Source of the DNA: Pseudomonadota bacterium
Lineage (GTDB): Bacteria > Pseudomonadota > Alphaproteobacteria > Rhizobiales > Hyphomicrobiaceae
Direction of reading: 5' to 3'
Length of the DNA: 64,000 bases
Assembly (NCBI GenBank): GCA_023412805.1
Contig: JAEZRM010000095.1
Coordinates: 54,109-118,108, forward strand
Below the pieces are notes generated by a model. The model saw only the letters and a program-made list of their open reading frames with translations. It was not told where the DNA came from and ran no database searches. The translations under genes and the position numbers were made by a program. Positions 11,108 through 41,934 of the stretch are shown here, piece by piece; position 1 is the stretch's first letter; the number at the start of each line of letters is the position of its first letter.

Positions 11108-11192
11108 CGAACCACGATCAGTTCTCTGCGAGGCCATTGAAAACAATGGCGCGAGCGACGGGACTTGAACCCGCGGCCTCCGACGTGAAAGG
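11108..11192 (-). repeat. Duplicated 3' half of tRNA-Asp plus downstream flank (att-like island boundary, distal copy)
   Basis: 11125-11182 is identical (58/58) to 41836-41893. Identity continues with 2 mismatches to 11192/41903 and in degenerate form back to 11108/41819. It covers the tRNA 3' end (CCA, T-arm, 3' anticodon stem) plus 22 bp downstream. The offset between copies is exactly 30,711 bp. Confidence 0.85.
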
Positions 11193-11439
11193 ACATAATT
11201 ATGCAAACAATATCAAAGCCATTAGGAACGGATATTCAGGCGCAAAGGCATCTAACGCGCCCAAAGTTGCCGAGCCCACATCTCCACCTAGACGCCACAT
11301 CTTCACGCGTCAGGAGCTGTACGACCTTGTGTGGTCAGTGCCCATGATGAAGCTCGCGGTTCGGTTTGGCGTTTCCGGAAGAGGGTTGGCCAAAATCTGC
11401 GAACGGGCATCTGTGCCGTCGGCATCGCGCACTTCGTAA
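11185..11439 (+). pseudogene. Truncated remnant of a conserved hypothetical gene (ELYxLVWSxPM family)
   Basis: ...PRRHIFTRQELYDLVWSVPMMKLAVRFGVSGRGLAKICERASVP then a stop. Full-length relatives, as I remember them, continue with IPxPPRGYWAK and several hundred more residues. The ORF-track start at 11137 lies inside the tRNA fragment and is not credible. Confidence 0.35.
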
Positions 11440-11827
11440 GTGGGTTTCCCTCGTCGAGTTTCTGCGATCTGCGACCATCTGAGTGGAATTTCCTCGACCA
11501 GATCTGCGCTGCCGAACCGCGTTGGCTCCCAGGCTTCAACCACCCTCTTTGTCTTCAGGCCCAGATGGGCCGGTTCCGTCGCCATCGCTCCCGCCGTAGC
11601 CATCGCTCAGCCCTTCGCCGCCCTGACCTTTGCGACCTGGATCCCAGCTTCGATTTCTGGCCGGTTTCTCATCGGCCCCGCGCGATCCGCTTTCCCGATC
11701 AGGCTTCTGAGGCTTACTTGGGGCTCGCGTCATTCAAGACCTCTCTTGATCGATCAACTGGCACCGAAAAGCGTTAGCCGCCGCCACGTGAGCAATGGCT
11801 TGCTGCGTTTTCAAGAACGGTGCTCGC

Positions 11828-12190
11828 TTACGCCCAGTAAGGATGTGCGCGGTAATAGTCGTGGATTTGCTGCTCAGCCGCACGATCACGGAAAGGCTGA
11901 TCACCGGCGGCGAACGTCGGTGCGCCTTCGAGCTGCTCCCGTGTGAGGCCTACGACATAGCCACCCTGATTGGTGTCGTACTTCAACGTACCCCAGGGAA
12001 GCGGATGATACTGCTCGCCAATGCCAAGAAGGCCGCCGAACGACATCACCGCATAGGCTGTGCGGCCGGACCTCTTGTCGATCATCACATCGTAGATTTC
12101 GCCGAGCGTTTCGCCCGCAGTGTTGTAGACGTTGGTGCCGGTGACCTTGCCGGCGGAGATGAGCGAGGCATTCTCATCAAGGGTGATCAT
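11828..12190 (-). CDS. PRC-barrel domain protein
   Basis: LISAGKVTGTNVYNTAGETLGEIYDVMIDKRSGRTAYAVMSFGGLLGIGEQYHPLPWGTLKYD is a typical PRC barrel. A perfect EcfG-type promoter lies 37 nt upstream. Confidence 0.85.
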   Translation of the reverse strand: MITLDENASLISAGKVTGTNVYNTAGETLGEIYDVMIDKRSGRTAYAVMSFGGLLGIGEQYHPLPWGTLKYDTNQGGYVVGLTREQLEGAPTFAAGDQPFRDRAAEQQIHDYYRAHPYWA

Positions 12191-12226
12191 GGCGGAAACT
12201 CCAGGTTGTAGACAGACTACCTGTTG

Positions 12227-12251
12227 AACGTGTCGCGACCGCCAGCGTTCC
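12227..12251 (-). promoter_or_regulatory. sigma-EcfG-type promoter, GGAAC-N16-CGTT (perfect)
   Basis: Minus strand GGAACgctggcggtcgcgacaCGTT. The -10 element lies 37 nt upstream of the PRC-barrel ATG. Confidence 0.65.
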
Positions 12252-40825: not shown

Positions 40826-40920
40826 GCGCATGAGCGCCGATTTGGCACGCTCCTCTTCTGTCTAAACGGCGTGCGCACTAGGCAGGCCTTCTCGCGATTT
40901 CGCCGCGCAGTTGCGGCGCG

Positions 40921-41286
40921 CTCGCCTGGTCGAGGCAAGGGCATGGTCACCGCCCGCCAGCGGGACTGCAATCCGTTGCAGCGGCAGCCTCTTACGTCAG
41001 CAGCGAGACGGCCGATGGCACCCGGGAGGACGTTGCGAGCTATGTCGCCCAGATCTGCACGCTTGTGAAAAACCGCACCGGCCATGATTTCAGCCAGTAT
41101 AAGACCAAGACACTCATTCGCCGCATCCAACGGCGGATGCAGCTCGTGCAGCTCGAGACGGACCCTGACTACATCCGCCTTCTGCGCAAAGATGCACGCG
41201 AAAGTCAACTTCTGGTCCGTGATCTGCTGATCAACATCGTATTTTTGCCCGTCGTACTGGCCTCGAGCGAACAGCTCACTTCGTAG
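40921..41286 (+). pseudogene. Fragment of a CheR-type methyltransferase (N-terminal helical domain only)
   Basis: Frame-1 translation gives ...EDVASYVAQICTLVKNRTGHDFSQYKTKTLIRRIQRRMQLVQLETDPDYIRLLRKDARESQLLVRDLLINI. It then diverges (expected VTxFFRD) and stops. There is no upstream start or downstream SAM-binding domain. Confidence 0.5.
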
Positions 41287-41818
41287 CTCAGCCCACTTGC
41301 GCCGAATTCGATCTTTGGCGGCGCATCACAATTCTCGGCCATGGCTCTCTCCAGCACCACGCATCTCGCGCATTACGCAAATCGTCTGCAGAGATTTTGC
41401 GACGTTCTGCGTGCCGGCAATGGATCGTTGCTTCGACTATCGTGCATGCGTTCGTTGATTTTCCCAGTTCTCAGGAACGCGCTTCATGACGAAGGTTGAG
41501 CCCTTCGTGAGAGTTGATCCCGTGAAAGCCGTGCAGCAGTGGACAGGCTACGGTCGTCCAGCTTCACGGCTCAGCGCTGCCTAAATCATCCGTCCCGGCA
41601 CCGTGAAATTCATGACTTGGCCGGTGTGGCTTCCCTCTTCCTCTTCCGATGTCATCGGACAGCCAACCGTTTGCACAAGACCTACGGACCGGTGCAGTTG
41701 GCGTCGGTGCGGGATGCGGATGAAGCGCGTCAGAAGGGACGCGCGAAATTTCGGGCGGTTCAGGCGCCCGGCAAACAAAGGCCGGACAAAAATTCCCGGA
41801 TCCCGGCCGGAAAGTTCC

Positions 41819-41903
41819 CGAACCGCGATCATCTATCTGCGAGGCCATTGAAAACAATGGCGCGAGCGACGGGACTTGAACCCGCGGCCTCCGGCGTGAC
41901 AGG
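41819..41903 (-). repeat. att-like direct repeat, proximal copy (3' half of the intact tRNA-Asp plus downstream flank)
   Basis: See 11108-11192. 41836-41893 is identical to 11125-11182. Confidence 0.85.
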
Positions 41904-41934
41904 CCGGCGCTCTAACCAACTGAGCTACGCCCGC
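41858..41934 (-). tRNA. tRNA-Asp: tRNA-Asp (anticodon GUC)
   Basis: Reverse complement GCGGGCGTAGCTCAGTTGGTTAGAGCGCCGGCCTGTCACGCCGGAGGCCGCGGGTTCAAGTCCCGTCGCTCGCGCCA. Cloverleaf with anticodon loop CTGTCAC; CCA is encoded. Confidence 0.93.

Follow-up and report, generated by a model that had tools for sequence, protein, structure and literature searches.

A tRNA-Asp genomic island without an integrase that carries general stress genes behind putative sigma-EcfG promoters in an uncultured Hyphomicrobiaceae lineage

How did a 30-kb block of stress and redox genes come to lie between a tRNA-Asp gene and a second copy of the 3' part of that gene, when no integrase stands beside it? The question is raised by a stretch of 64,000 nucleotides (the window, whose first letter is position 1) from contig JAEZRM010000095.1, positions 54,109 to 118,108 of the forward strand, of assembly GCA_023412805.1, a Pseudomonadota bacterium placed in the alphaproteobacterial family Hyphomicrobiaceae. 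The block, hereafter the island, occupies 11.2-41.8 kb of the window. The account that we favour, and that we hold to be quite probable, is that of an island which was integrated site-specifically, later lost the module for integration and has become fixed. Its cargo raises a further question, because the gene list resembles the general stress regulons of Alphaproteobacteria.

An insertion in the 3' half of tRNA-Asp

ARAGORN predicts two tRNA genes in the window, one of which is an intact tRNA-Asp(GTC) with an encoded CCA end (all features are located in Table 1); its 3' end points to lower coordinates, i.e. towards the island. The 3' part of this gene belongs to an 85-nt direct repeat, 93% identical, whose two copies are spaced 30,711 bp from start to start and form the sole long direct repeat within 9-44 kb. 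The exact core of the repeat is 58 nt long (11125-11182 = 41836-41893), and beyond it 8 of 10 positions match on the inner side and 13 of 17 on the outer side. A 27-mer taken from the core matches the window at exactly two places when up to 3 mismatches are allowed, where 0.00 are expected from 100 shuffles, and with the same tolerance no third, internal att copy, which would mean tandem accretion, is present in the window. Each copy is composed of 46 nt of the tRNA, from the CCA end to the anticodon loop, plus a 7-bp hairpin and, from the downstream flank, about 20 nt more.

The hairpin (GCCATTG-loop-CAATGGC on the plus strand; 41843-41861 and 11132-11150) overlaps the CCA end of tRNA-Asp. 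It is also found next to the tRNA-Asp sequences of two other contigs described below, L007 (10875-10893) and L106 (about 9470-9490), with conserved stems and a loop that varies by lineage: it reads AAAA in the two copies of the window, but GAAG in L007 and AACC in L106. Since no T-run follows it, the hairpin is not a canonical terminator.

Relatives were sought with the protein encoded by the DUF2189 gene of the left flank, taking one genome per species; seven were found, all Hyphomicrobiaceae or Hyphomicrobium. In the closest of them, L007 (the metagenome-assembled genome OH_CBB_194), nine left-flank genes are collinear with the window at 92-97% amino acid identity, and its DNA is about 92% identical to both window flanks. 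The site is uninterrupted in this genome: the DUF2189 gene is followed after 93 nt by a complete tRNA-Asp and then directly by the DUF488 gene, and the island is not present. In a three-way alignment, the left junction of the window agrees with L007 as far as the anticodon-loop position, beyond which the two part; at the right junction they differ up to the repeat's outer edge, and from that point they are collinear. The other relatives holding the DUF2189 gene have no cargo beside it.

The composition of the DNA changes at the same borders. Mean GC content at third codon positions (GC3) is 0.692 in 26 island genes versus 0.811 in 26 flank genes (Mann-Whitney p=5.6e-9), and overall GC is 0.605 in the island versus 0.641 in the flanks; the shift falls right at the repeats, and GC3 in the flanks is evenly high as close as 150 nt to each of them. 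The empty site, the repeat anatomy and the composition therefore support the view that the region between 11.2 and 41.8 kb is an insertion, a genomic island gained by horizontal transfer and lodged in the 3' end of tRNA-Asp. A preliminary description made from these letters had recognised the footprint of site-specific integration into a tRNA 3' end: it had reported that the 3' 46 nt of tRNA-Asp and the adjoining flank recur at an offset of 30,711 bp, with 58/58 and then 8/10 positions matching, and this description of the repeat proved accurate. It had also proposed to look for an empty site, with the DUF2189 gene next to tRNA-Asp and DUF488, in a close relative and to compare the composition with the flanks, and both comparisons set the island apart.

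The same tRNA gene serves other elements. A viral contig (IMG/VR UViG_3300031159_000070, L106) carries at 9437-9490 a tRNA-Asp 3' fragment with the same hairpin; the match to the tRNA extends to the 5' side of the anticodon stem and no further. The fragment separates a host-like gene for an HWE/PAS histidine kinase from genes for a single-stranded DNA-binding protein, a HerA-like ATPase and a peptidoglycan-binding protein. This shows that a second, unrelated element uses tRNA-Asp in a related bacterium. A 5'-half pattern scan of this contig found no intact tRNA-Asp end, and its integrase type was not seen. In this group, then, the region around the tRNA-Asp anticodon stem-loop is a target still in use for integration. 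Williams reportedly defined, in 2002, an anticodon-loop sublocation class of integration sites, to which this target would belong.

Decayed ends and occupancy of the site

All island open reading frames (ORFs) with coding signal were scanned with Pfam, and those left unassigned were also compared with NCBIfam and PHROGs. [quoted passage not shown] A six-frame Pfam scan of both ends (11180-11835 and 40815-41870, with stops masked as X and E<=10) revealed no recombinase remnant, CheR_N being the only model matched; neither PF00589, PF00239 nor any other recombinase model matched any ORF or the six-frame translations of the ends. The ORFs of the ends had no match in PHROGs, tblastn with the tyrosine recombinase of a 12.4-kb element of Burkholderia pseudomallei detected no integrase remnant, and no integrase is encoded elsewhere in the 64-kb window. 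The product of the gene at 17834-18733 (299 aa) was considered as an unrecognised recombinase and rejected, as it is a multi-pass membrane protein.

What the two ends do hold is two scraps of genes. The family to which the left-end scrap belongs occurs in 83 plasmid records (tblastn against plasmids); a relative on a Mesorhizobium plasmid adjoins an AbiE toxin-antitoxin system, and a full-length one lies directly downstream of the tyrosine recombinase on the 12.4-kb circular B. pseudomallei plasmid p1 (L020, 5526-7712), which is the element just mentioned. Compared with plasmids by blastn, the end regions gave CheR-like matches only. The preliminary description had noticed that no recombinase ORF stands near either repeat, which the ORF and six-frame scans bear out, and had suggested remnants of PF00589 and PF00239 as the thing to look for, none of which is detectable; the gene fragments that it reported at both ends (11185-11439 and 40921-41286) are real, although their coordinates had to be corrected to 11296-11418 and 41026-41238. 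Integrase genes of tRNA islands usually sit between the cargo and the tRNA-side repeat. Here this position, about 1 kb at the right end, is taken by non-coding debris, which is most simply explained if the integration module was deleted.

Two further observations concern the relatives of the left-end scrap. The family, of about 390 aa, has the N-terminal motif ELYxxVWxxPxxxLAxxxG(I/V)S..GLAK.C and no Pfam model, and the 12.4-kb circular element of B. pseudomallei also encodes an AbiEii toxin.

In the population the site appears to be occupied throughout. Exact look-ups of flank-gene proteins led to contigs from several samples. Those spanning the left junction, which come from three assemblies, all contain the island, at 99.6-100% identity, and among contigs at least 99% identical none has an empty site or a circular junction; the island thus appears fixed. 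Logan contig ends at 11154 and 41903, together with a 30,713-nt island contig, were considered as evidence of excision and rejected, being explained by k=31 repeat collapse. In fact, the 30,713-nt contig consists of the unique island plus 30 nt of repeat per side, as a k=31 graph yields from a 58-nt exact repeat, and the break at 41903 is expected if the sample contains a further tRNA-Asp whose sequence is the same from tRNA position 3 onwards (41932 minus 29). The preliminary description had taken the element for an island that is old and immobilised, or else for one mobilised in trans. This was the right pair of options, and the evidence favours the immobilised one; 'old' needs to be qualified, because the 58-nt core is still perfect and the GC3 unameliorated, so that the island is younger than the roughly 8% DNA divergence from L007.

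Cargo genes and putative sigma-EcfG promoters

The resemblance of the cargo list to alphaproteobacterial general stress regulons was the reason for searching the sigma-EcfG consensus GGAAC-N16-17-CGTT. The exact motif occurs 7 times in the 64 kb, where 0.76 occurrences are expected; six of the seven are in the island (0.25 expected, with a maximum of 2 in 100 first-order Markov simulations) and one is in the flanks (0.37 expected in the simulations). When up to one mismatch is allowed, the island has 25 motifs versus 12.4±3.7 expected and the flanks have 8 versus 11.9. Moreover, in a screen that covered 1-45 kb, all 14 intergenic motifs with at most one mismatch that face a start codon within 300 nt lie in the island. 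Behind them are the genes for PRC, GSP26, the 87-aa and 39-aa products, DUF421, the uracil-DNA glycosylase (UDG), DUF892, CinA and KatE, and the GSDH-like/pqq and PaoABC-like operons; the motif of CinA is an exact one, at 31442-31466, 34 nt upstream of the gene. By these predictions, the cargo would consist of ten or more transcription units, most of them with a sigma-EcfG-type promoter ahead.

At 30487-30514 two exact motifs overlap on opposite strands in a near-palindrome GGAACG...CGTTCC and face the genes of a short-chain dehydrogenase/reductase (SDR) and of BrkB. The pair is outside the 14-hit screen owing to the BrkB start used there. Its arrangement suggests one shared bidirectional stress promoter for the two genes.

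The cargo families overlap the EcfG regulon table of Sphingomonas melonis Fr1, in which PRC-barrel proteins, general stress protein 26, catalases, homologues of CoxL/M/S and a zinc-dependent alcohol dehydrogenase (Zn-ADH) are listed, and in which the same motif stands 10-100 nt upstream of the genes (PMC6599016). The island encodes no sigma factor and no regulator recognisable by Pfam, NepR not being specifically excluded among its small unassigned proteins. It probably depends, as far as motifs can tell, on the EcfG of the host, and the block is probably an add-on to the PhyR-NepR-EcfG general stress response of the host without a regulator of its own. Two points weigh against this: the motif on which EcfG dependence rests is a short one, and the EcfG and PhyR genes of the host are outside the window.

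As regards the origin of the cargo, the right half of the island has its nearest homologues in a 5.24-Mb contig of GC 0.587 (JGI 3300058953 Ga0573903_003, L102), in a cluster at 8500-21700 that comprises PaoABC-like, SDR, KatE, BrkB, YdeP-like and alcohol dehydrogenase (ADH) genes in another order than in the island. Amino acid identity is 89.5% for the YdeP-like protein, 83.5% for KatE, about 81-82% for the MoCoBD subunit, 74-75% for the FAD and Fer2 subunits and 69% for BrkB. Three exact EcfG motifs occur in this 22-kb locus, two of the three inside the cluster. The left half of the island (PRC, pqq and neighbours) has no counterpart in L102, and GC3 differs between the two halves (about 0.65 vs 0.72); the cargo is therefore a mosaic. 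With the MoCoBD protein, the product of the last cargo gene, 80 loci were obtained from JGI metagenome contigs, the best of them 71% identical and with only the three-gene PaoABC-like operon in common, and a search of 5.8 billion proteins gave one homologue of about 82%, the context of which (L102/L103) is a rearranged chromosomal stress cluster. The cargo was presumably built from chromosomal stress clusters of another alphaproteobacterial lineage, and the L102 cluster may represent the source pool.

Table 1. Location of the island, its borders and its genes in the 64-kb window.
Feature	Position	Strand	Remarks
Left direct repeat (att remnant)	11108-11192		Displaced pseudo-tRNA-Asp 3' fragment (11147-11192), post-tRNA hairpin and ~20 nt of flank
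Island body	11193-41818		~30.6 kb, ~30 genes
Left-end scrap	11296-11418	+	Residues 1-40 of a ~385-398-aa hypothetical protein family
PRC-barrel protein	11828-12190	-	Pfam; exact EcfG-type motif 12227-12251 (minus), 37 nt upstream
pqqA-B-C-D-E operon	12355-15545 (pqqA 15435-15545)	-	Pfam/NCBIfam
GSDH-like beta-propeller dehydrogenase, ahead of the pqq operon	15576-16964	-	One-mismatch EcfG-like motif 17010-17034 (minus)
General-stress-protein-26-like protein (GSP26; Pyrid_ox_like)	17251-17736	+	EcfG-type motifs 17041-17066 (exact) and 17195-17219 (one mismatch)
Multi-pass membrane protein (299 aa)	17834-18733	-	Within 17834-19934 also a 39-aa membrane peptide gene
87-aa protein, 73-aa Cys-rich protein, PCC-domain protein	within 17834-19934	+	Exact EcfG motif 18877-18901
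857-aa epimerase-SPW-VKOR fusion	19987-22560	+	
DUF421/YetF and UDG-superfamily glycosylase	22631-23948 (UDG 23301-23948)		One-mismatch motifs upstream of both
SDR, DUF892 (YciE/F-like), soluble pyrroloquinoline quinone (PQQ) glucose/sorbosone dehydrogenase	24698-27542		One-mismatch motif upstream of DUF892
Zn-ADH, SDR, BrkB/YihY, CinA	28463-32006 (SDR 29643-30476)	SDR -, BrkB/YihY +	
YdeP/FdhF-family molybdoenzyme	32081-34369	-	
Large catalase KatE/HPII	34674-36800		One-mismatch motif upstream
PaoABC/CoxSML-like Fer2-FAD-MoCo oxidoreductase	37057-40825		One-mismatch motif upstream of the Fer2 gene
Decayed non-coding ~1 kb	40826-41818		Separates the last cargo gene from the right repeat
Right-end scrap	41026-41238	+	Residues ~210-280 (CheR_N domain) of a 1048-aa CheB/CheR-type protein; N- and C-terminal parts gone
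Right direct repeat (att remnant)	41819-41903		Overlaps the 3' 46 nt of the intact tRNA-Asp
tRNA-Asp(GTC)	41858-41934	-	ARAGORN; same sequence as the tRNA of the empty-site relative L007

Some genes of the window are of interest in their own right. The 857-aa ORF of the island has an unusual architecture, joining an NAD-dependent epimerase/dehydratase, SPW-repeat membrane domains and a vitamin K epoxide reductase (VKOR). UDG-superfamily glycosylase genes are found both in the island (23301-23948) and in the host flank (51402-52040), where the gene adjoins one for a protein that has a metallo-beta-lactamase (MBL) fold and weakly matches the anti-Pycsar protein Apyc1, below the Pfam cutoff. On the minus strand of the flank, 46362-47870 encodes two adjacent paralogous retropepsin-like aspartic proteases (Asp_protease_2/gag-asp_proteas, 205 and 233 aa), beside a DJ-1/PfpI gene, and 57353-57880 encodes a RES-domain protein (toxin of RES-Xre type toxin-antitoxin systems).

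Origin of the island, known systems and meaning

The favoured account can be set out as follows. By recombination of the tyrosine-integrase type, the attP site of an element, with its copy of the tRNA-Asp 3' half, would have recombined with the chromosomal tRNA-Asp, the crossover falling in or near the anticodon stem-loop; the tRNA would thereby have been made whole again at the right junction, with the displaced 3' fragment staying behind at the left one. Entry, crossover and rebuilding of the tRNA are what we infer from the empty site and the anatomy. Later, the module for integration and mobility would have been deleted, leaving about 1 kb of junk and the two end scraps, and the island would now be a passively inherited segment of the chromosome. 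Module loss and scraps are directly visible in the DNA, and it is the order of these events that we infer. The anatomy, in the best reading, is now that of a cis-mobilizable element (CIME).

Several observations weigh against this account. No integrase remnant whatever was found, so that integrase-mediated entry has to be argued from the anatomy alone, and no intact integrase-bearing relative of the island was found among metagenome contigs or in the set of 5.8 billion proteins. The cluster of L102 is chromosomal, with no tRNA or integrase within 10 kb. In addition, the repeat reaches 39 nt past the tRNA 3' end, which is longer than attP needs; the donor may have been a close relative, or the repeats may have undergone gene conversion, or the island and its flanks may have come together by homologous recombination.

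This last possibility amounts to an alternative of its own, in which the island arrived already seated at tRNA-Asp, with flanking core DNA from a close donor, through homologous recombination in the flanks. Besides the extension of repeat homology beyond the tRNA, it draws support from the hairpin loop, AAAA in both window copies versus GAAG in L007, which implies that the att copy of the element came from a tRNA-Asp locus very similar to that of the host, and it is the only way in which an integrase-less island could spread. We nevertheless consider it unlikely, given that no break in composition or identity is seen outside the repeats, with about 92% identity to L007 on both sides; it would moreover still need the original integrase event in the donor, and would thus change the place of that event and not the nature of the island. 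A little less probable again, to our judgement, is that the island is a CIME that still moves, excised by an integrase encoded elsewhere or carried along by accretion with an incoming integrative and conjugative element (ICE) or integrative and mobilizable element (IME) in one att site. The published definition, loss of integration and transfer genes with attL and attR kept (PMC5704250), fits the anatomy, the 58-nt core is identical in both copies, and at least one further element, that of L106, makes use of tRNA-Asp in related bacteria; but every junction-crossing contig is occupied, neither an empty site nor a circular junction is seen in any contig at the 99% level or above, and the Logan breaks and the 30,713-nt contig are accounted for by repeat collapse. 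The arm regions beside the core are decayed, moreover, so that arm sites for integrase and Xis may be gone, and the 64-kb window holds no integrase.

That the region is native, with two ancestral tRNA-Asp copies around a stress cluster, one of which decayed, and with the segment deleted in the L007 lineage, seems very improbable. Only one empty-site genome is available, and in L102 the nearest homologues of the cargo form a chromosomal cluster that has no mobile-element genes around it, as such a history would have it. Against it stand the GC3 of the island, 12 points below both flanks, the left-end scrap of a gene associated with plasmids and integrative elements, the lack of cargo beside the DUF2189 gene in other relatives, and the left copy of the repeat, which begins exactly at the anticodon loop like integration footprints and unlike a decayed whole tRNA.

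The island of the window shares with the classical tRNA islands, such as the Mesorhizobium symbiosis island at tRNA-Phe and enterobacterial pathogenicity islands, the insertion into a tRNA 3' half, the tRNA-derived direct repeats, the restored intact tRNA, the atypical composition, the absence from a close relative and the adaptive cargo. It differs from them in the lack of any integrase or mobility gene, in the decay of both ends and in the repeat that continues 39 nt past the tRNA. CIMEs have been described for the ICE and IME families of Streptococcus and are thought to arise by ICE or IME decay (PMC5704250). The island is like them in that integration and transfer genes are absent; its core repeat is intact (58/58) beside decayed arm regions. 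It is unlike those described in its alphaproteobacterial host, in its use of tRNA-Asp and in having no accretion partner, and its mobilisation is putative. No functional ICE, IME or prophage genes (relaxase, T4SS, phage structural or replication genes) were found by Pfam and PHROGs in 11.2-41.8 kb, and the metagenome and protein-set searches identified no parent ICE or IME, the sole hint being the left-end scrap. A tRNA-associated integrative element with stress-responsive cargo is also known in Alphaproteobacteria from Sphingopyxis granuli TFA, the ICE3 (bioRxiv 10.64898/2025.12.11.693706), but this is a complete 218-kb ICE with integrases, relaxase and T4SS, and its reported cargo consists of lipid metabolism and resistance/defence genes. 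In the literature we found no paper describing an island of the EcfG regulon; the sole one combining these terms deals with this 218-kb ICE.

On the mobile-element side the locus is nothing special: decayed tRNA islands that lack an integrase are common, and a name for the concept, CIME, exists. What is less ordinary is how densely EcfG-type promoters occur in it and how coherent, like a regulon, its cargo is. The EcfG regulons described so far are, to our knowledge, scattered over the chromosome, whereas in the window ten or more putative EcfG-type units are gathered in one horizontally acquired 30-kb block without a regulator. In other respects the block is like the sigma-EcfG regulons of S. 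melonis (PMC6599016), Sphingopyxis granuli (PMC7083833) and Rhizobium etli (PMC3892343), with the motif GGAAC-N16-17-(C)GTT 20-190 nt upstream of start codons and the same families, namely PRC-barrel, GSP26, catalases, CoxSML-like oxidoreductases, ADH and SDR. We tentatively propose, as an idea that may well prove wrong, that it is a 'plug-in regulon', one horizontally transferred cassette of ten or more independent sigma-EcfG-dependent units that has no regulator, relies on the universally conserved PhyR-NepR-EcfG switch of whichever alphaproteobacterium receives it and was assembled from L102-like chromosomal clusters.

The value of the locus lies in being a clean and fully bounded example with a matching empty site, from an uncultured Hyphomicrobiaceae lineage, and it suggests that a set of general-stress genes with their own EcfG-type promoters can travel as one block. 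If the proposal of a plug-in regulon is true, a single integrase-mediated step at tRNA-Asp could add or remove a large slice of the general stress response. If confirmed, the joint travel of such genes would provide a natural test case for the expansion of a regulon by horizontal transfer without its regulator, and would account for the large differences in size and content of EcfG regulons among related Alphaproteobacteria.

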